Shown piece after piece: positions 10,316 to 45,400 of a stretch of DNA of 64,000 nucleotides. Position numbers and translations under genes: made by a program. This DNA is from a virus (Duplodnaviria > Caudoviricetes): IMG/VR virus record IMGVR_UViG_3300020470_000690, positions 1,494 to 65,493 of that record, one strand, 5' to 3'. Every line of letters begins with the position of its first letter. Within the stretch, counting starts at the first letter, position 1. The notes below the pieces were generated by a model that saw only the letters and a list, made by a program, of their open reading frames with translations, did not search any database and was not told where the DNA came from.

Positions 10316-10563
10316 TGTTTCTCCTTTACTAATTGCAATAGTAGTCCTTTTATGTCAGACATATCTGATTTTAGATCATTCACTTCTTTTTGTAAAGAGG
10401 TGAAATTACGTTTAGATCGCTGCCTTTCATTATAAGACTGCATGTATTTAGAGTACTCGTCTGTATCGGTCATTACGATAGCATTGGACTCTGTATCCCT
10501 ACAGTATCCTTTGTTTTCATCACCCTCGACGGGTACAAATCGTTTTCCAGTAAAAGCAGTCAT
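10312..10563 (-). CDS. Conserved small phage protein downstream of the VrlC-like gene
   Basis: VEG...RD..SNAIV...EY..Y plus C-terminal coiled coil EVNDLKSDMSDIKGLL; its start shares base 10563 with the upstream stop. Confidence 0.75.
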   Translation of the reverse strand: MTAFTGKRFVPVEGDENKGYCRDTESNAIVMTDTDEYSKYMQSYNERQRSKRNFTSLQKEVNDLKSDMSDIKGLLLQLVKEKQ

Positions 10564-13500: not shown

Positions 13501-16500
13501 ATAACTGTCTCACCAATAACGAAAGGTGTTTCGTTAGTTCTGGTGTCTTCTGTAGAGTTCTTAACGATCTCAATTAGTTTAGGTGTAATGTAATTAATTA
13601 CTTGGTCACCATCAAAGAATGCATACATTCTTGTCTTTGGCTTAATTCTTTGTACATCAAATGCAACGTTCCTAGAACGAATCCATGGGATAAATGTACT
13701 ATCAATGATGCTATCACCTAAGGATCTTCTATCAATCCTTGGTACAACACGAGTTCTAACACCACTCCTTACCTGACGACGGGTAGTAGTGATAGTCTCA
13801 CCACGTAACACACGACGAGGTACACCACGAGCGAATGTAGTCTCCCTCCATGTTCTAGTACCTGATCTACGAGTACCAGTCCATGCGGTTCTCCAACCTC
13901 TCCACTGTACAGGTGCAAAACCTTGCTGGTTTACACGCAATCTACGACGTGTTGCTTGGAAGTTACCTTCGATAGATGTTACTCTAACAGGAGCACGACG
14001 TGTATCAGTCCAGTCATCAGATGCTGGAGTTAGGTCAATACGACCAATAAATGTAAAGACGTTAAATGGGTTAACATTCTCCATACGTGAAGCGTATGGT
14101 TGGTTAATAATCATCTGCTCCACCCATGGAAGAGTCAGAATATTCGCAATAGGTTTATTGACATTGGTTGACAGAGCAGAACTCCACTCTAATGCAACGT
14201 TAGTTGTATAGTGTGAAGGACGTAGTATACCCTCAGTAAAGTCAAGAGAGCACTTATAGTCAATATTATCAGTATCTGAAGTACCATGATCGGTGAAGTC
14301 ATCCACCATGAAACCATTCTTCAGACGGTCAAAACCATCAGCATCAAATGCTTTTACGTTTCTTGCATCATTCTCTAATAAAGTAAGAGAAGTATAATAC
14401 TCAACAGACTGCAAACGTCTATCCATGTTACCGATATCTTCCATCGTGTAACGACGTTGTTGATGCAGTGAGATAAGAATATCTTCATTTACATCATAAA
14501 CATAAGGAGCATAACGGATCTTTGCTAACATCATAGCGTTATCAAGATCGTCTGCTTCTGGAGGATCTTCAGCAGGTACACCCATTGATAGTTTTAGATC
14601 ACCATCATGGGTCATGAATAATTTGTCTTGCCTTGGTAGATAGTATTCATAGTCACAACGGAACTGCTCTTCTACCTTAGGTATATTAAAGATAGTGGAA
14701 CCACCAGCACCACCAGTACTAGTGAATACTCTTGAGGCAAAGTCTAAACTTACACAATTAACATAATAAGGTTGTTCGACAGTACCCTGTCCAGATGCTA
14801 GTTCACCAACAGCAGGTCTAAAGTCTATATTATCTGTAAGAACTTTACTATTATTTTCACCTCTCCATCTAGGAATCTCAGTGAAGCCGATTCCAGAGTA
14901 AGATTGGTTAGAGAAATAGTCACCCGATGCTTCATGAACGAAATAGTCGAAGACAACAGCCAACTTTCTACGTGGTTCTGGTGTGCCACCCTTCCTAACA
15001 AGTTTCGAAACATTATAAAAATACGATGTATAATTAGAATCTAAATCAAAGTTTGCTGTGATATTCTTTGATCCTCTCTCTACTGAACCGTCAGCGTCAT
15101 CAATAACACCAACCAGAGCATTGAGAGCATCATCAAAACCATCAATAGTTTCACCTGAATTAAAGTTTCCGCTACTTAGTGGAACTATGTATAGTCTAAG
15201 ATTATTGGAATTAAAGGAAACAACTCTACCACGAGCACCAGATGTCCTACCAACAACAACAGAACCATTGTCAAAGAAGACGTTCTCTGTTAGTACAACA
15301 TAAGGAACCTGAGCATCCTCCTCATCTCCAGACTCAAAGACAGCATGAACCTTATAGACATCGTTCAGTGCGAATGAAATCTCTTCATCCTCAATACGTG
15401 TACCATAAAGGTTACCATAAGCTAGACCATAATTCTGAACATCATTATTGTCTCTAGTACGAACGACTTTCATCGTTCTCATCTTAGCAGCAGTCTTAAT
15501 CTTCTTGGAGACATTATTAACTGATACAGCAGCAGTTAGTGTTACTTCAGATATGTTCGCTGAACCACCACTACCATCGTTCATGCCTGTGATCTGCATG
15601 GATTGACGGTTAGCACCGAAAGATACACTAATTGTTGGTTGTGCTTTCTCAGATTCTGCTTCTATGTCTAATACTGAACCAACAGTCCATCCATATCCAG
15701 TGTTACTGTTAGCACCTTGTGTGACTGTAAGGATATAATTCTCACCATCTAATGTAGAGAACTGTTCATTCTCTGGAAGAGTAAATGTAACGTCACCAGA
15801 TGACAATTGCTTGTTAGCAAAAGTCTTCATTACCATAAATGATTCGTCAGAAATTGACTTGATAGCTTGCTTAGGCATATCAATGACAAGTTCACCATCC
15901 TGTACTGGTTTCTGAGTAAAGAAAGGACGTAAACGAACTACCTGACCTGCTTGATATTCAGCATCAGTTATAGTACCCTTAGTTAAACCTGTATCTAGTT
16001 TTGCATTTTGGGCAGCAAAATCAAATACTACAGCAGTACCAGGATCTCTTCTGTTAGCAGTAGTATATCCTATATCTGTATAGTCAATTCTCCTAATACG
16101 TAATGAGTTAGAACCTTTAAAGTCTGTAGCAGTTGGAGATATAACCTCACCTGCACGAATGTCTGCTGACAAACGAGTACCATATCCTTCGACATCACCA
16201 GCACCTGCCTGATCAATAGTGATAGTATTACCACTAAGTGAAGCAACATCATTAAGAGTTAGTGATGCAGTAAAGATTACAGTAGCACCATCCTTACCTA
16301 CTACCTGACGAATGTCAGATTGCTCATAAGAATAGATTGCATCTAGAGTGTCTAGAACTCTACCATCTCTTAGTAGAACTTCTCCAATCTGGAACTGTCC
16401 AGATATTTGATGAAGTAATGCATGCTCACCAGTACCACTGTGAACGAATCCTCTAGCACCAGATGTACGACCAACTAGAACTTCTCCAGCATTAACTGTC

Positions 16501-17927
16501 TGAGAGTTTGCAAAGTTAATTGCAGTGAACATCTGTATGTCAAACATGAATAGACGATACTTAGTACCATCAACCTCAAGTTGTAAACATCTTGCTAAAC
16601 CAATCTGTTGTCCTTGTACAGAGTTAGAAGGACCTGCACCTGACCAGTTATCACGTAATTCTAATATCTGATAACAGTTAGTTACACCTTCTCCAGAAAT
16701 CTCTGGCCAACCCCAAACATCATATACCTCACATGACTGTGATAGGTCAATAGGAATAATCTGGTTCTGACGACCTAAGAATGTACGAGGTTTAGGTGAG
16801 TCAACATAGTTAGTAGATAATAATTCTGTACGATATCCTTTAACATATGCTTTACCTGGACCAACCTCCATTGCACACCATTCTTCACTGGCAACTTGCC
16901 CATCATTGGATGTTTGACCTGCCTTATATACACCATTGTTAAAGAAATCATCTAGGTGCTCTCTAGCACGAACATCAAAAGTATTGACAACATAATCACC
17001 ATGTGTCTCATAAGTACGACGAGCAATAGACTTCTCAATCTCGTTATATGTTGTATGATCAACAAAGTTCTCTACAATAGAGTTGTTCAGACGCAACAAT
17101 TCGATGAAGTTCTTATCAGTATCATCAGCAATTGCTTTCTTAACAAGCTGTGTCTTAATTCTAAACCTGTGTGAACCTGGAGCAGAGTAGTTAGATGATC
17201 CAATTGCATTGTCCGTTAAGGAAGGATCGTCTTCTGGGGTAATGATTGATTCTGATACTTCGAATCCGACTCTGTAGGAAGGATTATTGGTATACTGATC
17301 AAGAATAATATAAGCAGAAATGATGTCAACAAAGTGACCACGGATGAAATAGACTCCTTCATTAATATATGCTGTAGAACCAATTCTTGCAGAATCAACT
17401 GGCAATAACTGTGCCCATGGAGATCCGATCTCAATCAAAGTATTACCAAAAGTTAATTCTTCTTCACAAATTAACTGTTCATTATTTTGGAATACCTTTG
17501 TAGAAGTATCTGAAGTTGTGTCACCAGACTCAATATACTTCAGATAGAATGTAATATAACCAGCAGTTGATTCAGTAGCAGGGATAGAGAAGAGAATCTT
17601 AGCCTTGATGCCAGTGGTTAGACCCTCAACAATCTTTCCGTGTAACTGAGTACGATAAGTCTCAACGTCAACTCCTAAAAATGCCTGCTGTATAAGCACA
17701 CAATGTACATTCAGGTCATAACCTATTTGACCTGGAATGACCATAGCACCTTCTTTAAACAGGTGCTGTCCCATTGCTTCGACCTGATTCTGCAGGATCG
17801 ATTGCATAGTGGTAAGTTCTCTTGCCTGGATTGGGAATCCTGGTCGGAAGAGAACTCTATAAAAGTTTTTATCTTTACTGAAATCGTCAAAATATGGAGC
17901 GATATTCAGATTAGTATTCTGTGGCAT
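10563..17927 (-). CDS. VrlC-like / DUF4815-type large virion structural protein (2454 aa)
   Basis: N-terminal NIAPYFDDF...FYRVLFRPGFPIQARELTTMQSILQNQ, YTMEDIG..D.RL..VEYYTSL, DPLAQSF, C-terminal KDFRAIA; follows gp8. Confidence 0.85.
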   Translation of the reverse strand: MPQNTNLNIAPYFDDFSKDKNFYRVLFRPGFPIQARELTTMQSILQNQVEAMGQHLFKEGAMVIPGQIGYDLNVHCVLIQQAFLGVDVETYRTQLHGKIVEGLTTGIKAKILFSIPATESTAGYITFYLKYIESGDTTSDTSTKVFQNNEQLICEEELTFGNTLIEIGSPWAQLLPVDSARIGSTAYINEGVYFIRGHFVDIISAYIILDQYTNNPSYRVGFEVSESIITPEDDPSLTDNAIGSSNYSAPGSHRFRIKTQLVKKAIADDTDKNFIELLRLNNSIVENFVDHTTYNEIEKSIARRTYETHGDYVVNTFDVRAREHLDDFFNNGVYKAGQTSNDGQVASEEWCAMEVGPGKAYVKGYRTELLSTNYVDSPKPRTFLGRQNQIIPIDLSQSCEVYDVWGWPEISGEGVTNCYQILELRDNWSGAGPSNSVQGQQIGLARCLQLEVDGTKYRLFMFDIQMFTAINFANSQTVNAGEVLVGRTSGARGFVHSGTGEHALLHQISGQFQIGEVLLRDGRVLDTLDAIYSYEQSDIRQVVGKDGATVIFTASLTLNDVASLSGNTITIDQAGAGDVEGYGTRLSADIRAGEVISPTATDFKGSNSLRIRRIDYTDIGYTTANRRDPGTAVVFDFAAQNAKLDTGLTKGTITDAEYQAGQVVRLRPFFTQKPVQDGELVIDMPKQAIKSISDESFMVMKTFANKQLSSGDVTFTLPENEQFSTLDGENYILTVTQGANSNTGYGWTVGSVLDIEAESEKAQPTISVSFGANRQSMQITGMNDGSGGSANISEVTLTAAVSVNNVSKKIKTAAKMRTMKVVRTRDNNDVQNYGLAYGNLYGTRIEDEEISFALNDVYKVHAVFESGDEEDAQVPYVVLTENVFFDNGSVVVGRTSGARGRVVSFNSNNLRLYIVPLSSGNFNSGETIDGFDDALNALVGVIDDADGSVERGSKNITANFDLDSNYTSYFYNVSKLVRKGGTPEPRRKLAVVFDYFVHEASGDYFSNQSYSGIGFTEIPRWRGENNSKVLTDNIDFRPAVGELASGQGTVEQPYYVNCVSLDFASRVFTSTGGAGGSTIFNIPKVEEQFRCDYEYYLPRQDKLFMTHDGDLKLSMGVPAEDPPEADDLDNAMMLAKIRYAPYVYDVNEDILISLHQQRRYTMEDIGNMDRRLQSVEYYTSLTLLENDARNVKAFDADGFDRLKNGFMVDDFTDHGTSDTDNIDYKCSLDFTEGILRPSHYTTNVALEWSSALSTNVNKPIANILTLPWVEQMIINQPYASRMENVNPFNVFTFIGRIDLTPASDDWTDTRRAPVRVTSIEGNFQATRRRLRVNQQGFAPVQWRGWRTAWTGTRRSGTRTWRETTFARGVPRRVLRGETITTTRRQVRSGVRTRVVPRIDRRSLGDSIIDSTFIPWIRSRNVAFDVQRIKPKTRMYAFFDGDQVINYITPKLIEIVKNSTEDTRTNETPFVIGETVIGVTSGSRFRVAAPNSGLVTNPYSQTNAALPDSYASQTDILNVDTQVMARTVSPDYYGNINIGEILVGQTSGARAVVKDRRLMSDLTGNMNGVFFIPNPQNSSNPRWATGSRVFRLSSSDTDSRLPGAVDSAAEAEYTARGTLNTVQENVLAVRNAQIVRDTVSDRRTVRSVRTNVRQVGWWDPLAQSFLLEEEGGTFVTGVDIYFGTKDSNIPISMQIRPMENGYPTKDILPFSDVTLEPSQVEVSENASIATRFNFPAPVYIPMSEEHCFVLFSDSNEYKVWISRMGDIDITGTRTISEQPYAGVLFKSQNASTWTADQYEDLKFSLYRAQFDTSVTGRAIFNNTKLGLANDGILSLVNNSVTTIKPKQLITLPTGTSYNFTVGARIIQTPSTASATVVEFDAAANPQTILVTDIVGTFAQGFIDGNGDPFQSLKSSQGTATIVMSTVNNGVFEVGDVITGSSSGATAVVTNYVSGTQTITANYVDSQFDVSNDTLSEPGGVSGTLSSASYGGDSYTAYPALTPAPRTGDKKIQIFHPNHGMHNRSNNVTISGVESEVPSTVLTSTLSSTATSISVQEAGGFHKIINGQNIGNTNQGYIKIVAASEATVMSAIPGEDEATEAWRNWDPDNEIIAYSAINDTGTTITVATSGRGSASTVAKEWPSGSVVYCYNLDGIPLTEINKTHTAIDDPTLDSYTLATTSISSVGIRGGGAGTTATQNVPFEMITPTIQVMNFKETSIEASVNTTSGTSIGSGGTIADQASFINNGTYDIIQINEENQYDNPRIICSQINEDNKLEGNKSFIMRIDMKTEKANLTPVIDLDRVSAITTSNRVNSWPGGAQVLGLQSEIDTTANVSLLPSGDQNEAVYLTKIAKLANISRSIKIMIAMQRFGDSNISLYYRVQKPGSDKAMRDIGFVAIPIPDVGSTNVGEEEWEDFEYTVEGEEFQAFQVKIVMKSTSQAKVPLIKDFRAIAFAS

Positions 17928-27400: not shown

Positions 27401-30400
27401 TGCAAGGTTAATAGAACTATCAATTGTAAATTCTGTAGATTCTTTCTCATACTCAAATCTATTAGAAATAGCAGCAGTATTAGATGGTTCTAGATATAGA
27501 TCATATCCTGCCCACTGTGCATCATTGTTGTAGTCATATAAACCACGTTTAACATACTCACGTATACGTGTAACATAGAAGAGTAAGTGCTGTCTAACGA
27601 TATTCTCGAATGCTATGAAGTTACCTTCACCATCAAACCAAGAGTTAACCAACTTCAGCATACCTTGGTTACCACCTGTATTCAGGTCATACATCAAAGC
27701 AGTTACCATATTCTCAGCAAATGTTATATCTGCTGTAGTATCTGGATGGTTATTTTGAGTTCTCTCAAATGCCTTAGCAGTAATAGCATGATAATTAAAG
27801 AGTATATGACGTGCACAATGCTTATCGGATACTGAACCACCACCAATCGTAGTCAACAGTACATCAAAGAGTGTATCAACTGCTGATGTTACGTTATAGC
27901 ATGTATATAATTGATAATTATTGTTAAATCTCCATGGGAGTTCACGTTCTACAGCATCCAAGTGACTACCACCACCACCAGATGCTAGAGATATGGTTTG
28001 GATAACAATATCCATCAATCCTTCGATCTTATCTGCAACACCAACACAAGTAGTATTCCAATCACCATTCATAGCACCATTCTGATCGAAGGTGATACTA
28101 ACATCACGCATTACCATATCTGGAGCGTACTTAACTGGCCAAATATTTGGTAGAGTCTTACTAATAGTACCATCAGTTAGACTTGCAGGTGTAGCAATAG
28201 CATCAGTATACAGACCCATCAAAGATGTAATAGCAGATGCTACGTCAGCACACTTAGGATTATTAGTATCAGCAGTGATTACAAAATCACCAGAATTGTA
28301 AGGATAGAAGTCAAGATCAGCATAGAACTTCTGAGCGAAGGTATGACCACCTCTAGGATATGTCTTCTGAGCAGTATTACCATCCCTTGTACATGTGAAT
28401 GTAAAGGAGTTAGGTGCTAACTTACAAGTCGTTCCTGTTGACAATCCATGTGCACCAATTGTTAATGCTAGATATCCAGTTGCAGGATCGTAAGTAGCAT
28501 TAGTTGGAGTATATGTAACGATAGGTGAGTTACCAATATCGATAGTAATAGTACTACCAGACTTACCAACAATAGGAACAGGTCTATCGAATGCTGGATC
28601 CTTAGCACGAGGATATGTGTGGTTAGTAGAATAGTTATCCTGTTGACATGTGAATGTCAAAGAATTAGGTCTAACCATGACAGATTCACCTGCTTTATCA
28701 ACACAACCAGTAGCAATGCTAACCAGTGTATGAGTTGTTGTGTTGGTAGAAGGAACTGTATCTAATACCTGTACATCAAATGTATTTGCTGTGCAATTGG
28801 AAATTGTTAACCACTTACCAGATGCAGGGTCAGTAACTCTTGGATATGAATAGTTTCCACCACCCTGAGTACATGAGAATGTTAATCCACCATCAGCAAT
28901 CTTAACGTATTCGCCATTAGCAAATCCATGACCATTGATAGTAAGTGTAACGATACCTGTAGTGGGGTTGTAAGCGGCATCAGTAGGTGTTAAACCAAGT
29001 GTAGGACCTTGGAGACTATTAGACCCAATATCAAGTGCTAGGTTACCTGTACCAGCATCATAGGTAGCGTTGGTTACGTTAAAGTTAACCTCAGGAGTAG
29101 TTCCTATGTTAGCAGTAATCGTATCTGTTGTGTTAGAAATTATAGTTAACGTTGTTCCTGAAGCAGGATCAGTTGATCTTGGATATCCATGAGTAGTTGT
29201 ATTACCATCAAATTCACAAGAGAACTGTATTGCGTTGTTATCAAGTGTGAATGTATTGATATTAGCTTGCAATCCATGAGCAGAACCGAAGGTCAATGTT
29301 AGGTGACCAGTTAGAGGATCGTAGGTAGCATTTGTTGGTGTTAACTGAGATCCACCAGTTACATTAACTGAGTTAGATGCAGCAGATACAAATGTGTGTT
29401 CATAGTTACCACCAGTTACCAATGCACGGTCTGTAGCAGATACAAACTTATGAGCATAGTTACCACCAGTGATCAAGGCACCAGAAGCAGCACTTACAAA
29501 CGTATGAGCATATTGATCATTAGGACCAGAAGCACCGATATCAAGTGTAACTATACCTGCAGGATCCTGTCTCTTAATACCATTAGTGACAGCAGATACA
29601 AACTCATGAGTATAGTCACCACCTGTATGTACAGCACCTGTAGATGCAGATACAAATGAGTGAGCATAGTAACCACCACTTATCAGAGCACCAGAATCGG
29701 CAGACTTAAATCCATGCCATGAGGTGTTAGATGAAGTACCAACATTCATTGTAATCCATCCGTTCTGTTTCTGTATAACACCTCTGTGGATGCTATTAGC
29801 AAGAGCAGACTGGAATACGTGTGTAGTAGTATTAGTGGAAGGAATCTTCTGTAGTAACTGTACACTGAATGTGTTAGTAGTTACATCAGAAACTGGAATA
29901 TAGTTGTTATGTGCCCAGTCACGTTGTTGTGAAAGACCATTAGCGTCAGCAGATACAAAGTTGTGTGTATATGTACCACCAGATGTAACTGCATTAGCAG
30001 CAGCAGAAACGAATGTATGTGATGTAGTGTTAGCAGAAGTACCAACCCATACGCTGATTGTAGTATCTGTAACAGCAACAATCTTAGCAGCACCGTTATA
30101 TACTGGATCAGCACCACCAGCGGCATTTGCAGCTGCTCTTGGATATGTGTGGTTGGTAGCATTGCTGTCCTTATTACATGTGAAAGTAATAGAGTTTGCA
30201 GCAATTCTTACAGAGTCACCAGATGTCTGGATGCAGTTAGCAGCAGCACTTACAAAGGTATGAGGATTAGTATTAGTAGAAGGTGCAGTAGTTAGAACTT
30301 TAACATCGATGTAATCTGTTCCTGCTTCTCTAATCTCCATCCAACGACCACTGAAGGGGTCTCTAGTTTGGATACCATTAGATGTAGCAGATACGAATAC

Positions 30401-33400
30401 GTGAGTAGAAGTATTAGACTGAGGTATTGAGTTTAGAACTTGTACATCAAATCCACTAGCAGTAGCATTAGAGATCTGTACCCACTTACCGCTCATTGGG
30501 TCATCTGCCCTAGGATAAGAATGGTTAGTTTGATCTCCGTCTAGACCACAAGTAAATGTCAAGGAGTTGTCAGCAAACTTAACCCAATCTCCATTGGTTA
30601 GGTTATGTGCAGCAGTGGTATTGATATGTAAAATACCTGTCTGTGGATCATGTGTAGTACCAGTAGTTGCTGTGTGACTAATAGTAGAAGGTCTTGGATA
30701 TGTCTTCTGTGCACTACCACCATCTAATGTACATGTAAATGTCAGTGCATTATCAGCAATCTTAATATGCTCACCTTGTGTCAGAGTATGACCAGCAATG
30801 GTCAATCTCATGATACCTGTTGTTGGATTATAGTCAGCGTTGGTAGGTGTTAAAGTTTCACCTGCACGGAAACTATGAGCACCAATAGTCAAGTCCATAA
30901 CACCTGTTACTGGTGAGTAAGCAGCAGCAGTAGGAGTCCATTGCTTCTCTATTGACTGACCAACATGAACTTGGAATGTATTTGTTTGTGTATTAAATAC
31001 AGGGATCCACTTATCAGCAACAGGATCATCATGTCTTGGATAAGCATGAGTTGTATCATAATTATCCATCGAGCAAGTAAACTTGATCGACTCAGGTGCA
31101 AACTTAACCATTGCACCATCACCAAATCCATGGTTAGCAACAGTACATTCCATAATACCAGCAGCAGCATCATATGTTGCAGCAGTAATAGTAAATGTAT
31201 CAGTAATATTTCTTGGATATGCGTGGTCTGAACCCTGACTATCTTCACCACATCTAAAGGTTACAGCACCGTCTTCGATCCAAATGGTATCACCATTCTG
31301 CATACCGTGATCGTTAACGGTAAGAGTCATCTTACCAGTATTAGGATCGTAAGCAGCGTTAGTAGGTGTTAGATCAGTAGCAGCAGCAAAGGTGTGAGCA
31401 TAGTTATCGTTAGGACCAGATACTCCGACTTGGATATCAAATGTATCTGTACCTGCATTAAGTACAGGTAACCACTCATCATAAACTGGGTCAGATGTTC
31501 TAGGATATGAGTGCTTAGTAGCATTACCATCTTTAGTGCACTTAAAGTCAATAGCCTCAGTACATACCCTAACGTAATCACCAGCATGAGTCAGGCAGTT
31601 AGTTACTGCATTGACAAATGTATGCTCAGTCTGGTTGGAAGATACACCAACATTAACATCAAATGTATTCTGAGTTACATTAGTAACATGTAACCACTTA
31701 TCATATGCATAGTCTTCTCCACCAGGAGCAGAAGAGTTGTATGCTCTAGGATAAGCATGGTTGGTTGTATGACCATCCATACCACATGTGAATACTAATC
31801 CAAATTGATTAATCTTAACTCTGTCATCATTCTGGAATCCATGGTTAGCAAGACTAATAGTCATTACACCAGTAGCAGGTGCATATGCAGCAGCAGTTGG
31901 AGTATGAGTAGTCTGTGCTTTAAATCCATGACTAGGAATAGTCAATGTCATAACACCTGTTGTAGGTGTATATGCAGCATTGGTTATATCATAGGTGTCT
32001 AAACCAATCTTATCGATTGTTATAGCAGTATTATATCCTGCATCAGGACCACTAGGACCAGAAGCACGAGGATATGCATGGTCAGTCGCATGACTGTCCA
32101 TTGCACAAGTAAAGGTTAATGCATTAGTACCTAACTTAACAGTCTCTCCTGCTCTGAAGGTATGTGCACCGATGTTGATATCAAGAACACCAGTATTAGG
32201 AACAAACTTAGCATCATGTACATCAAAGTTTGTAATACCAGTAGTACCAACGTTAACAGTAACAGTAGTATCAGTTACACCTACAATCTCAATTGGCTCG
32301 TCATGTACTGGGTCTGTAATTCTTGGATAGGTGTGATTAGTAGCACCATTATCCATCGCACAAGTAAATGTGAGTGAATTAGGTTCGATTTTTAGGTTAG
32401 TTCCAACCTTGAGGTCGTGAACTCCCACAGTCATTATGAGGTTACCAGTGTTCGGCTCGTAACTAATTGCTGTGGGAGTAAATTTCTTGATCCTTGAGAC
32501 ACCAACATTGACTGTGAATGTGTCAGTTGTCTTAGAAATTATAGGCAACCACTGATTACTTGTCTGATCTGTAGTCCTAGGATAGGTGTGATTGCTGTAA
32601 TGATTGTCCATTGAGCAAGTAAATGTCAATGAATTATCAGCAATATTGATCTTATTTCCTATATCAAATCCATGTCCAGCAACTGTTAGAGTCAATAAAC
32701 CAGTACCAGCATCATAAGAAGCATCAGTAGCAGTGTGCTGAGTAGAGGCAACAGATACAATAGGTATAGCAGTGTCAAATGCAGGGTCTCTACCATAGTT
32801 AAGTGCAAGAGACTCATTCCTCATCACCTGGATGGCGAGATCTCTGGCATAATTAGTGATCCAAGTTGCTTCAGTGTTATGTGTTAGACCTTCATTGACA
32901 TAGTATTCAGCAGCATGGAAGACCTTGTTGTTACCACCATGACGGAGGTTCCAGCACATAGCATCCAAGAAGTCAGTTAAGTCATGGACACAATTGATGT
33001 TACCACCAGGAATGTTAAGTGAAGGATATTGTACTAAAGCAGCAGCAATAGACTCTTCAGCAATCAAACGAATGTTTCTTTCGATGATATCAGCAGCGTT
33101 AATGAATCTGTCCTTAACAGCATTACGCTCATAGGACTCAACATCAACCTTATCAAGAGACTCATCACCACCTGCAGGTGTAGTATCATCGTCAGCTGCA
33201 GGATCTGGGTCAAAGATATAGAGATTCTCACGACCAAATGCATTACGCATGGTCATTATTGCCATTTCAGTAGTAAGTTTAAGGACACTGATAGCAGCAG
33301 CATCTTCACCAGGTGCTACACCGACATTAACTGTGATATTACCAGTCTGTCTCTTCAGTCCATTGGTCGCAAATGACACAAATGTGTGAGCATTTGTATT

Positions 33401-36400
33401 TGTGGAAGGAGTTGTGGTTAATACTTGTATATCAAAGGTGTTTAACTGTACATTTGATATCGGTAACCATGCTTTGTATGCAGGGTCTTGTGGTCTTGGA
33501 TAAGTCTTAGTGACTGCACCAGATCCTGTATCACAACTCATTGATAATGCGTTCTCATCGAGCATTACATAGTCATTTGCCTTAGTAATACCACTAGCAG
33601 TAGCAGAAACAAAGGTATGAACAGCAACGTTAGTAGATGGAATCTCTTTTAGTACCTGAACATCAAAAGTATTATTAGTTACGTTAAGTACAGGCAACCA
33701 AGAGTTGTATGCAGGGTCAGTTGACCTTGGATATGTATGATTAGAAAGGTCACCATCTAAATTACAGGTGAATGTTAGTGAATTTCCAGCAATTTTAACA
33801 CTATCACCAGCAACGAAACCATGTCCAGCAACTGTTAGTGTCATAATACCTGTATTAGGATTATATGCAGCGTCAGTTGCGGTATGAGTTGACTCACCAG
33901 TGAATCCATGACCATTCTGGGTGATCGTTACGATACCAGTATTAGGATCATATGTTGCACCTGTTGGTGTAGAAGTAGTAACACCAACATCAGTAATTTT
34001 TACAGAGGTATTATAGACAGGATCACTCTGACGAGGGTAAGAATGCTCTGTAGCATAGTCATCTCTATCACAAGTAAAGGTTAAAGCACCATCTCTAAAC
34101 CTAATAGAAGTACCAGGTTGCAATGTGTGAGCACCAACGTTCATCACTAGGTCACCTGTTACTGAATTATAGTCAGCATTGGAGACATTGTAGTTAACTA
34201 TCGGTGAAGCACCAACATTAACAGTGATTGTGGAGATTGTACTCGAAGTAATAGCAATAGATTTACCATATGCAGGGTCACCTTTTCTTGGATACTTGTG
34301 CTTCGAAGCATGATCATCCATTGAGCAGGTGAATGTCAATGATTCTTCTGCAATAGTAATGGTATTTGCAGTAGTTAATCCATGATTAGGTATGGTAATA
34401 ACTAAATTACCATCTCCAGGAGTGTAAACTACGTTAGATGGAGTGTGATTACCACTACCATTGTCTGTTATAGCATTAGTAGCAGCAGTAACGAAGGTAT
34501 GACCGTAGTTACCACCAGTGTAAATAGCGTCAAGTTCTGATCTTACATACTGATGAGTATGCTGACGACCATTTAATTGGATAAGAGACTTATCTTCCTG
34601 GTTAAGATACAGATTAGCAGCATCCCAAGTCTTAGAGTTACCACCCTTCCTTAGGTCATGTGCGACTGCATTTAGAATATCTAATACATCATCAACACAA
34701 TTCTGAGCACCATCAGGAACACCGAAGTTAAGATACTTCGATAGGTCATTCATTGTATGAACTGCTTCCCAAGCAATGACATTAGCATTACGCTCAAGCA
34801 TATCAGCAGCATCTAACAACCTATCATTATCGGTTCTTTGGGCATTATAACCTTCAGAGTCGATAGTAATGGTAGCATCTCTGTATACAGTCAGTTCTGT
34901 ATACTCATTAACATAATAATCATCTTGATACTCGGATGATACACCAAGTTCAGCAGCAGTACTACCCTTAGTTACTAGAGTGTTGTTGACCGCATGCTTA
35001 CAAAGCTTAGCAACATGGTTATATACATCTATTACAGCACTTAACTCATTATCAATAGAGTAAAGTTCACTATTAGCATTCATGAACTTAGCTGTGACGT
35101 TCCTGATCGCAGAATTACCACCAGTAACTAGATCAGCAATGACAGCTGGAAGTATATAAGTCTTTATCTCATGAGTACACTTATTGGGGTTCGAATTGGG
35201 GTTTGTATAGAAATCATATACAGTACCATTAATATCCTTCGTATATGTTGCTTCTAACCAACCTACTGCTTCAGCAGCAATTACATCACGGTTCTTCCAA
35301 ATTAAATCACCAGCGTCTCTAAATCTCTGTCCAGTAGGTCCAATAATATCACCTACCTCATCAGCAAGAGCAGAAATTTCATCCTGAATGGCTTGAGATA
35401 TAGGTGAAGAGAAGTTATTAGGTATACGAAGTATGTCAGTAAACTTAGTAGGATTACCATCACTATCAACACCATAGTTCTCAAGATCTGTACTTGTAGT
35501 AGTCAGAACATAGTGACAAATAGGTGCTAGTTCTCTATATGTGTAAATTGACTGTAGTACTTCATTAGCAATATGCTCAAGACCCTCATAAGCAGTTAGA
35601 TAAGATCTCGCAGCAAGTGTACTATTGTAGTTACCACCATAACGTATATCATCAATAATACCTTTTAAGATATGTTCTTTTGTATCCCTTAAACAGAATG
35701 TAGTACCCTGTTGAGGACCAACACCATCAGCGGTGTCACCTGGCATCAACAGATCAGGATACTTAGCCTTCATCTTATTAACTGCTGTTTCAGCAATCCA
35801 TGCTCTATTAAGTTCGAGCATATCAGCAGCCTTACGATGCTCATCTCTAGAAAGCTGAACATCCTCAATAATTATTTCCTTAGTGGCATAATTAACCTTC
35901 TTAGCTGCAGCAGCAGAGTTTGTCGTTCCAGTAAAGGTTGCATAAACATCCTTATCACTCATGATGATAGGATGCTCATTACTCATAGAGAATGAGATAT
36001 TATCATTAGTGCTAAAGATAACTGGAGGAGTAAATGTTGCTGTGTAGTTAGATACACCCTTAGTGATAACAAAGTTATCAATATGACCTTGATAGAAGTT
36101 GGCACCTGCTTGGTCAGCACCAATGGTCATCTTCCTCTCAAAATAATTATTGGTGTCAGTGTAATCAGATCCTACCTGAACACCACCAACCCACAATTTA
36201 GTAATACCAGAAGTCTTAGATACTGCTACGTGAGTCCATGTACCAGCACTAATTCCATGAGAACCACTGATACGATCAGCGTTATCATAGGCAAGTTTGA
36301 TACTACCACCATCAAGATATAGACTTAAAGATCCAGTCTCACTAAGTCCACTTGTACGGAAGTCAAACAGATACTGTCCACCAGTTACTGCCTTGGCCTT

Positions 36401-39400
36401 GATCCACATCTCTATAGTAAAGTTATCAGTACCAAATGCATTTACATCAGATAGATCATGAGTAAGATATGCTTGTGATTCTAATAATAGAGAGTTAGTT
36501 CCACTACGCTTATCAAGTGAAGTTAATGTTGCTTTCGCTGGATATACAGTAAAGGAATTTGGTACTGCACTTACAAAGGTGTGAGCATAATCACCACCAG
36601 TAATAATAGCATCTTCACCACGTACAAAAGTGTGTAAAGTAGTGTTAGTAGAAGGTTGTGTACTTAAGACCTGAACAATAATAACACCACCATCTTGCTT
36701 CGTAATATTATTAGAAGTTGCACTTACAAAAGTGTGAACTGAGGTATCGGGAGAAACACCAATCTGAACACCAATAGTATTATTATCAACAACTGAAATA
36801 GGTAACCACTGATAACTTGCTGGATCAGTTGTTCTAGGATAAGTATGCTGAGTAGCATTATTATCATTAGCACATGTGAAGGTTAATGAATTATCAGCAA
36901 TCTTGATCATCTCACCATTCGAGAATCCATGATTAGCAATGGTAAGATTTAAAGTTCCCTTAGTAGGAAGATATGATGCACCAGTAATTGAGTAAGTACT
37001 TGATGTAATACTATCAATGTTTACTGAGGTATTATAGAATGGGTCAGAATTTCTTGGATAAGCATGCTCTGTTTGGTTACCATCTTGATCACAAGTGAAT
37101 ACTAATGACTGTGGCTTAAATCTAATCTTCTCACCAACATTAAGATTGTTAGGTCCAATGGTAATTGCCATTACACCTGTATCTGGTTGATAATCAACAC
37201 CAGTTGGTGTGTAATGCTTAAGTGGGGATGAACCAACGTTTACAGTAAATGTACTTGCTGTTGTCTTAATGATAGGTAATCTAACATTGTTAGCAACAGG
37301 GTCAGTAAGTCTTGGATAATCATGCTGAGTAGCATTAGCATCCATACCACAAGTAAATTTAATTGCATTTGCAGCAATAGAAACTTCATTACCTGTGGAG
37401 AATCCATGAGCAGCAACTGTTAAAGTAAGATGACCAGTAGCAGCATCATAGGTTGCGTTTGTTGGTGTAACGGTAACGTTAGAAGCACCAGAAACGTTTG
37501 TAATTCTTGAGTTAGTAATATACTCTCTATTCTGGAATGAACCAGTTAGAGTATTAGTATACAGCCAACGTAGTCCAGAGTTAGCACCCTTACATGAGAA
37601 ATTAGCACCAGACTTATGACCCTTAACTGTGTCACCAGGAGTGAAGAATCCAAGTCCACCTCTATCCTTATAAGCAAACTTATAAACCCTTATGTTCTCA
37701 CCTTCCTCGTAAGTACCATCGGTAACAGTAGCGAGTGAATTGATATATGCAAGACCACCACCCTCAGATACTGAATTAGCAGTAGCAGATACAAATGTGT
37801 GTGTATAGTTACCACCACTCTGAATACCGTTAGGTGTAGCAGATACGAAGGTGTGTGCATTGGTGTTAGTAACTGCACCCTGTCCACCGTTAACGTTAAC
37901 AGTAATAGTTGTCTCACTAGCAGCAGTAATTTCTACAGCAGTGTCATATGCATAATCTTCACCATCGCTAGTATTTGCTCCAGTTGCACGAGGATAAGAT
38001 CCATTTCCAACAGTACCACCCTGATCACAACTAAAGGTTAATGATCCAGTAGCAATCTTAATACTTTCTCCAACTGCTAAGGTGTGAGCACCAATGGTCA
38101 ATACTAAATCACCACCAACAGGATCGTAAGTTGCATTCGTTACTGTGTGGTTAACAATAGGTGATGCACCGACGTTAACAGTAATAGTTGTAGCACCTAC
38201 AGCATCAATTGCAATCTGCTGGTTGTAAGTTGGGTCACTAGAACGAGGATATGTCTTATTGGCAGTATTGCCATCCATCGCACAAGTGAATGTTAATGAA
38301 TTAGGTTCTATCCTAACAGTATCATTAGTTGTTAAAGTATGTGATCCAATGGTTAGAACTAAGTCACCAGTGGCAGCAGTATATGATGCAGCAGTTGGTG
38401 TAAACTGAGCACCTGTGAATGAAGTAGTTGCAATATTTGCTAATGTGTCAATAGCAGTTGCTACGTTTGCACAATTAGTTCCACCTTGGTTACTACCTGA
38501 AGAGTAATCAGGGTCATAGTAATGTGCAGTAGAAGAACTGTCTAAGTAAGGTGCAGAATATGTTGTAGGATCATTCAGGTTATAACCAGCAGTATTAAGT
38601 GTCTGGTCATACATGATATTTCTCATTGCATTCTTACAGAGATCCTTAGCAGCATTAAATGCTGTAATTGCTTCTTGTGTCTCTGGAAGACCTATGAATA
38701 CACCGTCAGTATTAAAGAACTTCTTAACAAACTCAACCATGTAGTAGTTGCCATCACCATCTAGGTCATCAGCAATAGCATCAATGAAGTAACCAGTGTC
38801 ACGAGTACACTTAGTTTCTAATGTAGTCTGTGCTGCAGGTTGTGAAAGATCAATTAGATCAGATAGAGATGCAGTTGTTATTACCTCTGAAACATTAGTC
38901 CAAAGAGTGTTCAGTGCTGCTGTAACATCAGCACAATTATTAGCACCATAATTGGTGGAGTTAGAACCAGAAGTACCGTAATTATCTCCTGGAGATGGGT
39001 CAGCAGTAATTCCTGATCCACCAGAACCGCCTGTAGATTGCTCATTATACTTCGTATATGAAACAGAATCGATTGTCTCAGAACCACTTAATGTGTTAGT
39101 AAGTGCTTCGACCATATGATCATATGCCTTACCATAACCATAATTAATCTCATTAGCTTGAGAATTAACATACTGGAAAGTAGTACCATCTGGGAAGAAC
39201 ATCTGACACAATTTACGTGTATAGACTGTTCCACCCCATCCAGTATCTCTGGATAGAGCATCGATGAAATATCCAAGGTCTCTCTTACACTTAGCAGCAC
39301 TAGGAATAGTAGTACCAGGATATTGAGTAATCATCTCATCATAAGACTTAGCGATGATCCACTCTCTATTCTTCTGGATCAAACGATAAGCATCCTTAAA

Positions 39401-42400
39401 TCTACCCATCTGGGCAACTTGGTTGTCACCAGTGTGATAGAAACCAGGATAGTCAATTGCTATCTGAGAAACAGCAAAATCTATAATTTCTTGTCTATTA
39501 TTTCTTATACTTCTAGCAGCATCCTTATATCTGTTCAGTGCGTCAGTTACAGGGTTACCATAAGTTACGTTGATAGAACGGATAACATCATTAACAGCAA
39601 GTGTACCACCACTTAAATTGTTATATTCGATTTCTGTAGAACGAACTTCTTCATAATCCAAGAAATCAGCGTTAATACGGTTTGCTGAATTGTTTAACTC
39701 AACAGGACTAATTGTAGTCTCTGAAATGTTATCTAGGATAACATTCTGGTTAGTAAGTGAAATAAGACGCTCAAAGACTAATCCAAAGAATGAAGAACCT
39801 TTGTTGATGATTAAAGTGTCTACAACGTCTCCGACTTTAGGATCACCAGATATAACTCCATTAACAGCATTTTGGTTAGTTACTGTTTCTCCATCTATGA
39901 AATCGGGGGTATTTTTCTTAACATAGTAAAGAACAGGTGGATTAGCACTTGCATCGAGTCTAACAACTTGTGCTTGAGCACCTGAGACTCCACCAGTGAT
40001 TATTTGGTCTTCTTCGAATGCAACTGCTGCTGCCATGTTAATGGAGGTAACTGGATCTCTATAAGGTGAAATTCCAGTTATTTTAGCTGCGATCTTCGAA
40101 GATGCAGAATATATGAGATCATTAAGTAAAATATTGTAAGCACCAGTTTCGAACTCTGCAGTACCAGAAGTCTTAGAAAGTACAAGACTAGAATCGAGAT
40201 TACCGTCTAAATCGAGGTTTGTCTCTTCTACAATTGCTGTATCGCCACCTAGATCAACTTTAGTGACTGTTTCGCCAAATTCGAATATAGTTGACTGATT
40301 AACATCATCAATGCTTCCAATGAATGCACTGAACCCAGTTCTGCTTACATCGACTCTAGCGTTGTTTACAAACGTTGTACCGATGATTTCGATGATATCA
40401 ATACTACTTGTACTAGTATCAATGACTTTAGCACTTGAGTTAACGTTATTAAACTTAGCTGTAATGATATCACCGATTTGTGGGAAAATACCGCCGATCT
40501 GAGTTAAATTAAGTCTCTTAATCGGTAAAACGGTAATATCAACATTTCTGTAGATAACTTTAGAATCAGGACGTGGTGCTTCAGCAAATACGATCTGATT
40601 ACCAACAATTTGATATGCTTCACCAGGAGATTGGATAACACCGTTTAAGGTGACCAACATCTGATTTTCTTTAATAATAATCTGTTCACCTTCTACAGTA
40701 AGGTTAAATGCCTTTGTAGCACCATCAAACTGATCAGAAATGTTATCAATCTTCTTAACGATAGAAGTTAGAATTTCCTCGGAGTTTGTTAGTCTTTTCT
40801 TCCTGAATAGAACTTCAGAGTTGTTAAATGTCGAATATATGGGTTGAGCAGCACCAAATGATGTAATTTGGTTAACATTAGTATATTCGTCAATATTAAC
40901 CTGTTTGGTGAACTCAGTACCAATTCTTCGGCCAGAGATGTCCTTACCACCCGTTAATTCCAACTGACCAAACATATTAAAGCCAGCTGGGTGGTTATTC
41001 TCTAATATCTGCTTCTTCCAACGGTTGATCGGAATTTGAGACTTAATAACGTATGAGAAGTTCTGATAGAAGTAAGAATCCTGAATCTTCTGTACAATCT
41101 CAGAAGGCTTACCAACGTCATCAATAAACCTACCAGAGGTCTTAGTGATAGCGTCAATGTTCAGAATACCCTTAGCAATCTGTACATTATCGATAATACC
41201 AGATGCTCTAGAAATTACACCCTGAACCTTGCCACCCTCGACAAAAACACCCTTAGGATTAACAACCTTAAGGATCTTAGGTCCAATCTGCCAACCATCG
41301 TTAGTTGATACAGTACCGAAGGCATTTGCCAAATCATATGACTCACCTTGGAATACTTCTTCAGATTCTAAGAATCTAGAGGTTTCTACGACTGCTTCTG
41401 CTTTACCACCAAATACCTCGGTTAATAGCACCTGTCTACCATTACCTTGTGTTAAGAAGGTGATATAGTTACCTGATTCAGCATCAGCAGGTGTTAAAGC
41501 AAATCTCAACTGGTCACTTTCTAAACCAGCAACATTACCAGCAATAGCATAGTAGGTGGTTGTAGATGACAATGAAGTCAAACCAACACTACTTGGTTTT
41601 GGTAATTCACCAACATCACTACCAATATCTTCTGCACGGAACTGAATAGCAGCACCAGTGGTTATACCATGAGGGAAGTTAAACTGTAGATAATTAAGGT
41701 CTAAGTTAACAACATATGTAAATTCTGACTTAAGTGTAACTGATGGTTGTGAGCTATATCCTGCACCTGGGTCTTTAACGATAATCTCAGATAATCTGTT
41801 GTTTTTAACAACTGCTTCTGCATCAGCACCTGTTCCACCACCACCAGCGATGACTACAACTGGTGCAGAGGTATATCCAGCACCTGGGTCAGTTATCTTG
41901 ATCTCAGAGAGTATTGAGGTGTTAAAGAGTTGTAAGTTGACTGGGAATGCAATCTCAGGACGTAAAGTATAGTCATGAGAGTAACCATAACCAAATTCAT
42001 TGTTTTTAAGAGTTTTGATCTTACCAATCTCTGTACCAGTCAAGAATACAGAAGCACCACTACCTTCATCAGGTATAACGACCTCTAAATCACCACCAGA
42101 ACCAGATAAGGTAGATCCTAGAATTCCTGTAATACCATCAACGTCAATCGATCCAAATGTGTATCCTTTACCTGGATCAGTTAATGTAACATCAGTTATA
42201 GTACCAGAACTAGTTTCTGCATCAATTTCGACGGTAATGATGCAAAGACCACCCTCACCATCACCTATAATAGGAACTTGAGTGTATACGCCAGGTGCAT
42301 ACTCAGTACCACCATTATTGATCTTAATCTTCTCAATCTTACGATCTGAAGCAATATCAGAGATAATTGGTAGCTTCTTATAGAATCCACCTGGAGAGAT

Positions 42401-45400
42401 CAACTTAATAGTGTTAATCGGACCAATTGCCTTAGTTGATGTAGTTGAGTAGTAAGAATTTGGATTATCTTGATCATCTACTCCGATTTCAGCATTATTA
42501 AATTCTGGTTCGATTTCTAGTGGGAATCTGAATTCAGTCTCACTTATAATCTCACCGATCTTAAATGTTCCGTCATATGGTGTCTTAATAACGTCAATGA
42601 AGGAGTTCTCACCAACTGGGGAGTTGGAGGATAATGTTCGGCTTGGATCAAAATAGTACGTGATATTTGTAACTTCACCACCGATTGTAAAGTTGACTAT
42701 AGGGGTCTCAGTGTTAGAAGACAATCCAGGAGTTCCAGACCTCTCAATAACGTTAAATGAGTATTCTAGTTTAAACTGGTTGTCTTGAGAGAAGGATAAG
42801 AAGTATCCAAGGTTAGAAGCATCACTCATGTCAAAGACATAAGAATGGTTTCTTACCAACATAAGAGTTGGGTGCTTAGATGATATCTTAACGTTAAATA
42901 TCGCATTATTATAGAATGCTGGTTCACTGTCAGCAGCAGCTCTCATTCTATAAGTAAAGTCTCTAGAAGAGAAGACTTCTTCCACAAAGAATGAACCATT
43001 AAACTGAGCAGTAGTAAATCCTTCTACAAAGAGGATATCTGCTGCTTTAAATTTATGAGCAGATAATGCCTGACAGTAAATAAGGTCAGTACGAGCATTA
43101 GCACTCCTAATAATATCCTTGTCTAGATTTACAACATATTCTATCTTCTTAACAGTACTTACACCATTAATCTGAGCAATCTTAGGATCACCTTCTTTAG
43201 GACCAGTAGTTACAGATCCACCAAGTGAAATAACGTCACCAACAATAAAGTCAGATCCAGTATAAACCTCTACAATCTTAACCCTATAATCCTCAGCATC
43301 ATATGGACGGAATCTAGCATAAGAAGATATAGCATCAGACTGAGACTGCCATGTCCAAACTACAGTACCATCAGTAGCAGTACCACTAGTATGAGTAGGA
43401 GCAACAGATCCTGTTACACCAGCAGTTGTACACTTATAATTCTGTCTACCAAAGTAAACTAAGTCATTAAGAGCATAAGATTTAGTTGCTTGCCATAGTG
43501 GTTCAGTAGGAGTTGGCCATGGATGATCTCTTAGGTCAACTTCTATAGGACCAGCAGCACTAATGTATTGCCATATAACTGAACCGTCAGTTACGTTACC
43601 AATCTCATGGGTAGGAGCAGTAGCACCAGAAGTAGCAGTATTAGTTGCTTTATAGATCTTACCATCACTCCAAACCTGATCATCTACTGTATATGCTGTA
43701 GCAGTTAACCATTCGGCCTGTGCCCGTTCTGGGTGGAAAATTACGTCTTCGATTATATTTTCTTCACCTAGATCATTCTTAAAGAGATCGGTATCATTAA
43801 AGTTACCAAACATCTTACCGATCTTATACTTACTACCCAATCCTGGGTAATCTAAAGTACCAGTTGGAACCTCAACGATAGTACCATATGCCTGTACAAT
43901 ACCCTGAGAGTTATACTGTTGTAGTATAGATCCCTTAGTAAACTTGATATCTTGGTTAAATGTAAATTCTAATACGTTATCAATCTTCTGGAATCCAGCA
44001 TCTCTAACATAGTACTTCGGTATAACAACAGCACTAACCTTGAGCTTAACTCCAAGTGGTGAAGGTACTGTAGATGTCTTAGAAGCAAATTGATGAGTAT
44101 TATTAGTAAATGTGTAAGTTCCTGGTGTTAGAGTTGATATGGTATCTGACATATCAAGAATCTGTAAACCAGAAGAACCTTCTGCCCAAACTGTAATTAC
44201 AGGATTAGTAAGATTATTAATATTGATTCCACTAGTCTCTGTAAATGTTAATGCCTTAGTATAGACTGTTGATGGGAATGCACTGTAAGCACCTCTCTTA
44301 TCATGCAATCTATCAAATTTGATTAGATTGATTTGAGAATCATCAGACGTAATAGCAAATTGAGTTGTTGGTAGTGTAAATGAAGCACCAGTAAAGACTG
44401 CATTAGGTTCGATAACTAAATCATCGATACTACCCAAGAAGCAGTTACCAGTAGCAGGTGTAGTTTTATTAGCACCAATATAAACGTCATTAAGACCAAT
44501 TTCAGTTGCAACAGTTGCTGTACATACCTGAATACCATCAAAATAAACAGAATAGGTGTAAGAACCAAGAGAAGGTGTCTCTTTAACTACTGCCCAATGA
44601 TGGAATGCACTATCTTGTAAAGTTGTCCAATAAGTAGATCCAACAGAAGAAACAGTTGATCCACCACCACCCTGAGGTGCGATGGTCATTTCGATCTTAC
44701 CTAAGTTGCCACTAGCAGCATTACCATCTACTGTTACTACTATACTGTTTCCTAAAGCATCATCAATAGTAATCATCTCAACTTTAGGGTTGTTAGAAGC
44801 ATGAGATGCTTCCATCAAACTCCATACAGATGTAGTCCAATTAGTTGTTATGCCTGCACCAGCATGCTTCATATAAGCTGGACCACCAGAGAACTTAAGT
44901 GACCCACCACCAAACTTATAGTCTGCATTATTGTGCAAGACTTTAGTCGCATCTGAGAAGGTAGTAGTTACATTTGCTTGCTTACTACTATCTTCTATAA
45001 GACCACTAAAATCTACTGCAGAGAGAATAGCACCTGTGGCAGTTCCACTACCACCGAAGTTGGTATCTAAGGTTACTGTAGTTCCAGTTGCTGTTAAAAC
45101 TTTTATACCAGCGGCAAGAGTCACAGTTCCACCACCGCTGGTTATTGAGACAATATCACCAGTAGCAAGACTAGTAGCATTACTTACATTAGTAATAGTT
45201 GCAGCACCAGCAGCAATATCACCAGCAAAGGAGATAGGTGAAGCATCAAAACGATTTACTACTGTCTGGATTGGTTTCTGCTTATTAGCAGCGATGATAA
45301 CGTCACCAGAGTTATCTACAACATGATTCCTTGTCTTAAATCCAATATCATCAGTATCTTTAATATTAGTACTCTGAAGAAGGGTTCCATCGTACTTAAA

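Follow-up and report, generated by a model that had tools for sequence, protein, structure and literature searches.

We wanted to understand how a polypeptide that begins with the closing strands of a domain can still build that domain, a question raised by one block of nested repeats in a giant structural protein of a tailed virus (Duplodnaviria; Caudoviricetes). The DNA analyzed is a 64,000-nucleotide stretch, positions 1,494 to 65,493 of IMG/VR record IMGVR_UViG_3300020470_000690, which we refer to throughout as the window. The giant protein is encoded by an open reading frame (ORF) of 9152 amino acids (24491-51949) that carries four blocks of a small β-barrel repeat; like every other feature for which window coordinates are given below, the ORF lies on the minus strand, and residue i of the protein corresponds to nucleotide 51949 - 3(i - 1). 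An initial annotation had proposed that the third block (block III; 33308-34561, residues 5797-6214, delimited by profile matches and a hand parse) is a circularly permuted copy of a nested cassette, that the root of the fourth block is permuted at a different place, and that circularized DNA segments, or tandem duplication followed by trimming, could account for both. We report that block III is very probably a genuine circular permutant, in which a nested cassette with two levels of a single β-barrel domain is rotated, and that it is located in a loop of a helical module. The structural part of the proposal, i.e. permuted cassettes opened at different points, is supported, but the DNA-circle mechanism is not, given the divergence of the copies and the conservation of the junction.

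Results

The giant protein contains 23 "YPR" anchors, in agreement with the 23 domain copies noted initially, and these are split over the four blocks as 2, 3, 4, and 14. Each barrel is made of four segments, namely three hairpins (a, b, and c) and a closing strand (d). Segment a reads T-P-T-x-A-x-Y-D-P-x-T-G ... H-G-F; segment b, which ends in YPR, reads G-D-x-V-K-I ... L-T-F-T-C ... H-x-Y-P-R; segment c reads D-P-x-Y ... W-L-P-I ... T-F-x-V-x-V-G and is divisible into c1 and c2; and the H-x-F closing strand d reads either P-S-T-N-T-x-x-H-T-F-V-S-A or G-G-x-Y-x-H-T-F-V-S-A. Four small hidden Markov models (HMMs), one for each segment, were made from the YPR anchors, and the resulting tokens were passed to a stack parser that strips each finished "a b c d," so that any leftover tokens represent unbalanced segments. 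Nothing remains of blocks I and II, which are therefore plain nests of the form a b c ... d. For block III, the leftover is "d a b c a b c," and for its orthologs in loci L005-L007 it is "d d a b c a b c." With both leading strands included, block III holds four each of a, b, c, and d, and block IV holds 14 each according to the hand parse.

The segments of block III follow the order d2 d1 / turn / D1(abc) D2(ab c') D3(a [D4 abcd] bcd) D2(c''). The chain enters through d2 (34520-34561, residues 5797-5810, HTHQYVRSELDAIY), a strand that we tentatively assign to D2, and continues directly into d1 (34463-34519, residues 5811-5829, TGGNYGHTFVTAATNAIT; 20.2 bits with the d-HMM), the predicted closing strand of D1. 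The turn NGSGNH (34445-34462, residues 5830-5835) then joins d1 to a1, i.e. the old C-terminal end to the old N-terminal end, and is followed by segments a, b, and c of D1 (34190-34444, residues 5836-5920) and segments a, b, and c' of D2 (33971-34189, residues 5921-5993). Between segment a of D3 (33884-33970, residues 5994-6022) and its segments b, c, and d (33350-33580, residues 6124-6200) sits D4, a contiguous a b c d barrel (33581-33883, residues 6023-6123), and nested insertion of the A1-B-A2 type thus holds within the block, which exits through segment c'' of D2 (33308-33349, residues 6201-6214, QTGNITVNVGVAPG). The initial annotation had placed its landmarks correctly: HTHQYVRSE starts at residue 5797 (nucleotide 34561), and ITVNVGVAPG ends at residue 6214 (nucleotide 33308). 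Its description of two closing strands, a turn at NGSGNH, and then a-b-c agrees with the HMM tokens, with scores of d2 as a 14-mer, and with a match to block II.

Block II (36548-37468, residues 4828-5134) consists of three domains in the order E1(abc) E2(ab c') E3(abcd) E2(c'' d) E1(d) and is the unpermuted counterpart of block III; block I (37769-38401, residues 4517-4727) is a plain two-level nest of two domains. When the leading 33 amino acids of block III were compared with the whole protein, with the self-match masked, the best match, at residues 5106-5134, was to the final two strands of block II (E value, 2.5e-11), with 32 aligned columns at 59% identity. Scored as a 14-mer against true d strands, d2 gave values of 33 and 32, compared with a null distribution that had a mean of -9.0, a standard deviation of 6.3, and a maximum of 26 (n = 1467). 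The body of block III (residues 5836-6016) in turn aligns colinearly with the first part of block II (residues 4828-5009) over 546 nucleotides at 58% nucleotide identity, and D2 and E2 are reciprocal best matches (57%). The N-terminal part of block III is thus homologous to the C-terminal part of block II, and the reverse; because front matches back and back matches front, the two blocks are related by circular permutation as defined by sequence. We note that the d2 subfamily signature H-x-[FY]-[VIK]-[RK], which occurs in one of two distinct D2-like units and in 9 of 190 other distinct units, involves too few cases to count as evidence, as just three D2-like units (two distinct) were reduced in the parser. 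Overall, the comparison with block II supports the view that block III is a rotated two-level cassette.

In such a cassette, the path of the chain would be reversed. In ordinary blocks, the chain would run outward through the a-b-c segments of successive barrels and return through their d strands; in block III, it would run outward through d2 and d1, turn at NGSGNH, and return through a1b1c1 and a2b2c2. The far barrel D1 would then be a contiguous d-a-b-c permutant, the strand that closes the near barrel D2 would be the one with which the block begins, and the nested barrels would presumably adopt a rod-like, out-and-back geometry.

Two AlphaFold2 models bear on this arrangement. In model 2, D1 was predicted alone as d-turn-a-b-c from a 15-sequence alignment of permuted units; this model had a predicted local distance difference test score (pLDDT) of 83.9 and a predicted template modeling score (pTM) of 0.77, and its leading strand d1 (model residues 12-17) had a pLDDT of 89. 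Independent models of cyanophage homologs in BFVD superpose on the whole D1 unit over 104-115 columns (query template modeling score (TMq), 0.85-0.90; root mean square deviation (rmsd), 1.2-3.0), and other copies in BFVD align over 79-82 columns only. The earlier suggestion that the leading strand completes the a-b-c segments that follow it is therefore supported by structure prediction in the case of d1, and the placement of this strand inside the modeled barrel supports a role for d1 in closing D1. Model 1 covers residues 5780-6235 and was made from an 11-sequence alignment. Here, the leading strands are predicted as β strands and fall in blocks whose pLDDT values are 79, 61, and 80, d2 (model residues m20-25) lying in the block with 79, and the c'' strand of D2 (m419-429) has a pLDDT of 86-90. 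We consider it probable that d2 closes D2.

The two forms of the barrel also behaved differently in VIA-align comparisons with solved structures, for which the ranges given are the first and last aligned residues and in which Z scores of 5-8 are common for small barrels. The contiguous barrel D4 matched the E1 FCCH barrel 4p22_B over 216-295 (Z, 8.7; rmsd, 2.2; 76 amino acids), the phi92 endosialidase 4hiz_A over 256-340 (Z, 8.1), and the FCWL1 protein 9jlf_E over 16-97 (Z, 7.7). The corresponding ranges for D1 were 215-282 (Z, 4.8; 64 amino acids), 255-325 (Z, 5.0), and 16-83 (Z, 5.5), respectively. Targets matched whole by D4 thus end one strand short in D1, which is aligned from approximately model residue 26 and hence through a-b-c only, as would be expected of a sequential aligner if the last strand had moved to the front. 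Barrels of other strand order do cover the leading strand of D1, namely the PilZ barrel 4rt0_A (6-115, 91 amino acids), 6tba_3A (14-111), and the Pam3 neck protein 8hdr_A (14-110). The range 212-425 of model 1, which contains D3, aligns to a single flavin adenine dinucleotide (FAD)-type barrel, 6tek_B (Z, 5.8). A Foldseek search against the PDB returned nothing usable (TMq of at most 0.12 for the whole block; E value above 0.2 for D1).

The permuted order is conserved among relatives, which are encoded at 53 loci in IMG/VR. Ten orthologous metagenomic loci, with identities of 65-99%, all show the segment order of block III, the leading LIQLNGRQHTHQ-x-VR motif (H-T-H-Q-x-V-R, in d2) is invariant in 11 of 11 sequences, and the leading 33 amino acids are more conserved than the block on average. 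A colinear alignment could be made of fifteen permuted d-turn-abc units, two from the window (34190-34534 and 29084-29431) and the others from 13 loci, which have identities of 43-86%. Positions that do not vary in this alignment include the closing-strand His, the His of the H-G-F motif in segment a, and the Cys of the F-T-C motif in segment b; these residues may form a metal site or a clamp that ties each closing strand to its own barrel. As d is joined to a by a linker of just 6-15 residues in each of these 15 units, the N- and C-terminal ends of the native barrel must be close together, as the initial annotation had held. The short linker also bears on a three-dimensional domain swap, in which the leading strands would close barrels of a neighboring subunit in the six-fold baseplate. 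Baseplates are indeed oligomeric, but the d1-a1 linker of block III has only 6 residues and the single-chain models close D1 with d1, which makes such a swap highly improbable.

Permuted units extend beyond the orthologs of block III, although the block counts in relatives rest on imperfect tokens. The 53 loci contain 35 distinct complete blocks, of which only 8 have a as the first and d as the last HMM token. A profile of the permuted unit matched 667 representative proteins among 1.84 billion at E values up to 0.001. The best 150 of these representatives contain 138 complete blocks, of which 35 reduce fully; the leftover is "a b c" in 22 and "d a b c" in 8. The best-matching stretch begins at profile position 10 or earlier in 68 of the best 150 by hand count, which is an upper bound because the profile is also matched where an ordinary d precedes the a of the next unit.

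Several observations weigh against our reading of block III. First, d2 escapes the d-HMM in the window (score, -2.1) and is called d in the orthologs of loci L005-L007; the token parser itself is imperfect, as it leaves 37 of 128 units unresolved and does not reduce block IV automatically. Second, model 1 is of middling quality (pLDDT, 73.9; pTM, 0.60; 61 for m31-40), and the packing of the strands is read only from confidence values and from the first and last aligned residues. Third, the a-b-c segments of D1 have G1 and F1, and not E1, as their closest relatives in the window, which implies that blocks II and III are not simple domain-for-domain rotations of each other. Fourth, no duplication intermediate was found, and the starred branches of the repeat tree described below force at least two changes of state. 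Some points also favor an explanation without any permutation, in which the leading strands would be part of the host module or a vestige and D1 and D2 would be open a-b-c barrels that do not need d: the d-HMM misses d2, the packing of d2 is not seen directly, and blocks with "a b c" only, 17 of them complete, occur in relatives. Nevertheless, a d-like H-x-F strand lies no more than 40 residues upstream in 9 of these 17 (and downstream in 8), the leading 33 amino acids are homologous to real closing strands and conserved above the block average, and the pLDDT of d1 in the single-domain model, together with the superposition of the BFVD homologs over the whole unit, is at odds with an open barrel. 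We therefore regard the absence of permutation as very unlikely and retain the circular permutant as the explanation of block III.

Block IV (28352-32791, residues 6387-7866), which contains 14 barrels, provides a second case with a different opening point. Its order according to the hand parse is R.c1, [G1 ... G10], R.c2, R.d, d, d, TGGSQL, K1(abc), K2(a [K3] b c), R.a, R.b. The root barrel R is therefore opened at b|c: the block is entered through segment c1 of R (32744-32791, residues 6387-6402), segments c2 and d follow much later (29474-29575, residues 7459-7492, with R.c2 at 7459-7476), and segments a and b form the exit (28352-28510, residues 7814-7866). Although about 1070 residues apart, R.c1 and R.c2 map to the first and second halves of the contiguous c hairpin of K2, with a summed score of 75 compared with a null mean of 27.9 (standard deviation, 5.4; maximum, 45; n = 489). 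This is in accord with the initial view that the root of this block is permuted at another place, and the landmarks given for it are right (RDPAFDTAIP starts at nucleotide 32791, KTYPR ends at nucleotide 28352, and TGGSQL spans residues 7531-7536). The nesting reaches nine levels, R > G1 > G2 > G3 > G6 > G7 > G8 > G9 > G10, in the hand parse. The K cassette within this block (28526-29473, residues 7493-7808), with the order d d / turn TGGSQL / K1(abc) K2(a [K3 abcd] b c), is a second permuted "d d turn abc abc" cassette and is colinear with block III across the d-turn-a junction (residues 7512-7638 and 5811-5935, respectively; 379 nucleotides, 58.6% nucleotide identity). When a smaller homolog of block IV in locus L023 was parsed, the leftover was "d d d a b c a b c a b."

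A fifteenth d-like strand, GGHTFAQKFYADL, is seen right after the last KTYPR of block IV (approximately 28310-28351, residues 7867-7880). It has no a, b, or c of its own, and L023 retains it in the form SGHKFKQSFYNDL. This strand may belong to the edge of the root R or may be left over from an intermediate of duplication.

The initial annotation had also recommended that alternative permutation points be sought in relatives, and one candidate emerged. In the block of locus L041 (ORF residues 817-1540; also in L042 and L050), read by eye, a c2-like strand and d come first and a, b, and a c1-like piece come last, the c1-like end running directly into a helical module; this block seems to represent a third opening point, c1|c2. 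In L037, a single permuted barrel occupies ORF residues 2006-2118 amid nonrepeat sequence, with d connected through a Gly-rich linker of 15 residues to a, b, and c. We note that, in addition to the c|d opening of block III, the openings in block IV (b|c) and L041 (c1|c2) are at loops that also accept insertions.

The surroundings of block III are consistent with an insertion. The host module is represented by an N-terminal part before the block (34562-34852, residues 5700-5796) and by a C-terminal continuation (33215-33307, residues 6215-6245), the lower end of which was read from the repeat pattern and of which m438-456 in model 1 have a pLDDT below 50. The N-terminal part is 36% identical over 81 amino acids (E value, 1e-8) to an uninterrupted paralogous module at residues 5365-5480, of which residues 5372-5429 pass the Pfam threshold for the phycobilisome protein family PF00502 (36.6 bits compared with a cut-off of 22.2). 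The N-terminal part of the interrupted module has no PF00502 match by itself, and the helical module before block IV matches the family with an E value of 0.007. By sequence comparison, block III is thus inserted in a loop of a predicted helical, phycobiliprotein-like module. Phycobilisome-related helical modules repeat at 35510-35857, 34562-34852, and 32780-33142.

We next consider how the permuted cassettes could have arisen. In a self-comparison of the DNA from 28300 to 38500, the best pairs of copies are 58-70% identical and none exceeds approximately 70%, which indicates that the events are old and that junction footprints such as microhomology are not to be expected. The permutation would predate the divergence of the P-RSM6-like phages. 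As the most likely route, we favor a tandem duplication in which a nested cassette was doubled and its redundant ends were then lost, or an equivalent unequal recombination between intragenic repeats; we consider this choice about as likely to be right as wrong. The alternative advanced in the initial annotation, in which a cassette was excised as DNA, circularized, opened elsewhere, and put back in frame, does yield the rotation seen, and the differing opening points (c|d, b|c, and c1|c2) exist. We give it very little credence for the following reasons. There are no recent copies, given the DNA identities above; every one of the 10 orthologs has the same junction; the permuted units form conserved groups or subfamilies that are colinear across distant relatives; the junctions, where microhomology was not searched in view of the divergence, showed no feature of a mobile element or repeat; and a DNA circle would have left no footprint to test and is not needed, as duplication and trimming give an equal product (PMC3320104). 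The divergence, the conserved junction, and the colinearity likewise speak against a recent event. The same source treats permutation by duplication as the standard model, with fission and fusion as the other of two. In a fission and fusion route, the d-strand part and the a-b-c part would once have been separate polypeptides or gene pieces that were fused in the other order. Its standing as one of two standard models (PMC3320104) is in its favor, but the blocks lie within one long open frame in 53 of 53 loci and no split form was seen, shorter or split proteins not having been purposely searched; we consider this route extremely improbable here.

A tree of 126 a-b-c units (80 columns), in which 55 of 123 inner branches remain open and which therefore cannot be used to count origins, shows two clusters of permuted distal barrels. 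The orthologs of D1 group together with a support of 98, and the K1 type (five rows; support, 93) adjoins the unpermuted hosts E1 and G1. A single origin of the permutation is neither shown nor excluded by this tree.

The whole giant protein is matched by the profile phrog_701, "virion structural protein," with E values of 0 for residues 5-3000, 0 for the piece encoded by 34562-42949, and 3e-285 for the C-terminal piece, and the ORF is flanked by baseplate wedge, tail-fiber connector, and sheath-stabilizer genes. On the basis of these profile matches, we identify the product as a cyanomyovirus virion structural or baseplate (gp7-like) protein. A tblastn search with the 418 residues of block III returned 301 phage records, every one of a marine cyanophage. 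The best match was to cyanophage P-RSM6 (71.5% identity over all 418 residues), whose ortholog YP_007675165.1 (gene CPXG_00128) has an identical order of block III segments and is annotated as just "virion structural protein." No description of this architecture in cyanophage proteins was found in the literature searched, which did not extend to bioRxiv supplements. A sequence search of the PDB gave no solved relative, the sole match being LptA (E value, 0.064), and Pfam has no family for the barrels, D4 alone and D1 alone matching none at E values up to 1.

Elsewhere in the giant protein, a YHYH domain (PF14240; 47317-47757, residues 1398-1544; E value, 4.9e-28) and a LamG-like domain (PF13385; 36061-36453, residues 5166-5296; E value, 5.3e-15) were detected, and its C-terminal end matches the Hoc-like and head-decoration families phrog_613 and phrog_4069. 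The window also contains two further very large structural genes, at 2857-10011 (2384 amino acids; phrog_697) and 10563-17927 (2454 amino acids; phrog_358, function unknown), a gene for a PAAR-like protein that adjoins the baseplate genes (54962-55492; phrog_281), and a gene for a 2OG-Fe(II) oxygenase (60000-60710; phrog_81).

Discussion

Circular permutation and domain insertion are usually treated at the level of single domains. One chain here holds both the permuted and the unpermuted version of a nested cassette, with several openings, and the barrel family concerned has neither a Pfam entry nor a solved structure. The giant protein thus represents a natural internal control set for the tolerance of a β-barrel to re-threading and a test bed for permutation-aware structure search. 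Our results offer a way to interpret how the largest genes of ocean cyanophages are organized; these genes probably encode host-contact parts of the baseplate. They should interest specialists in protein evolution and phage structure, and they carry a warning for annotators, as linear domain callers will mis-parse proteins with such a 23-barrel block architecture. A broader proposal, which we regard as possible rather than probable, is that the barrel family serves as a building kit, in which a stack can be threaded either way (abc out and d back, or the reverse) and rooted at any permissive loop, sub-trees having been re-rooted repeatedly into foreign loops. If this were true, the protein would be the most elaborate natural combination of recursive insertion and cassette-level circular permutation, with nesting nine deep, and the kit would provide a general growth route for giant phage fiber and baseplate proteins.

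Both recursive insertion and circular permutation have precedents, and one feature that sets this protein apart is the permuted unit, a multi-barrel nested cassette beside its unpermuted form. With respect to fold, the contiguous barrel D4 has, by structural match of the model, the fold of the six-stranded barrels of the FCCH domain of the E1 ubiquitin-activating enzyme, of reductases, and of elongation factors. Further matches of D4 were to 2v31 (Z, 7.1) and to FAD-binding barrels (Z, approximately 6), and the nearest Pfam-bearing Atlas cluster is viral E1_FCCH (0.92). In a 3152-amino-acid piece of the protein, E1_FCCH (PF16190) stayed below its cut-off (20 compared with 29.5 bits); the structural likeness to FCCH stands. 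FCCH is itself an inserted domain. Unlike those of E1, however, the barrels described here have no enzymatic context. Swaposin resembles block III in that a permuted module is inserted inside another domain and is explained through permutation by duplication. It differs in that a single helical domain is permuted, whereas here two nested β-barrels, carrying two more, would have been permuted together, and in that permuted and unpermuted forms share one polypeptide here.

Among published systems, the Si3 insertion of cyanobacterial RNA polymerase comes closest. The HABAS (sandwich-barrel hybrid) domains of Si3 in the β' subunit are described in PMC11515920 and PMC10895346 as mutually inserted, with some strand exchange, and the former relates three topologies of the HABAS family by circular permutation. 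A 2026 survey of 2.7 million domains presents the six-level nesting in Prochlorococcus rpoC2 (Si3) as extreme and indicates that insertion and permutation can co-occur (PMC13114784). The two systems share the principle that one small β-barrel family is recursively inserted into itself and that barrels are assembled from distant parts of the chain. The families and their fold matches appear to differ: there was no HABAS or SBHM chain among the 50 rows of VIA-align matches of D4 and D1, and the Foldseek rows for the Escherichia coli β' insert (2auk_B and 4iqz_A) had E values of 0.48-0.68 and probabilities of 0.03-0.04. The settings differ as well, with a virion protein here and a polymerase there. 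Further, the hand parse of block IV gives nine nesting levels, compared with the six reported in PMC13114784, and, unlike in Si3, whole multi-barrel cassettes, and not single domains, appear to have been rotated and re-rooted at three different loops.

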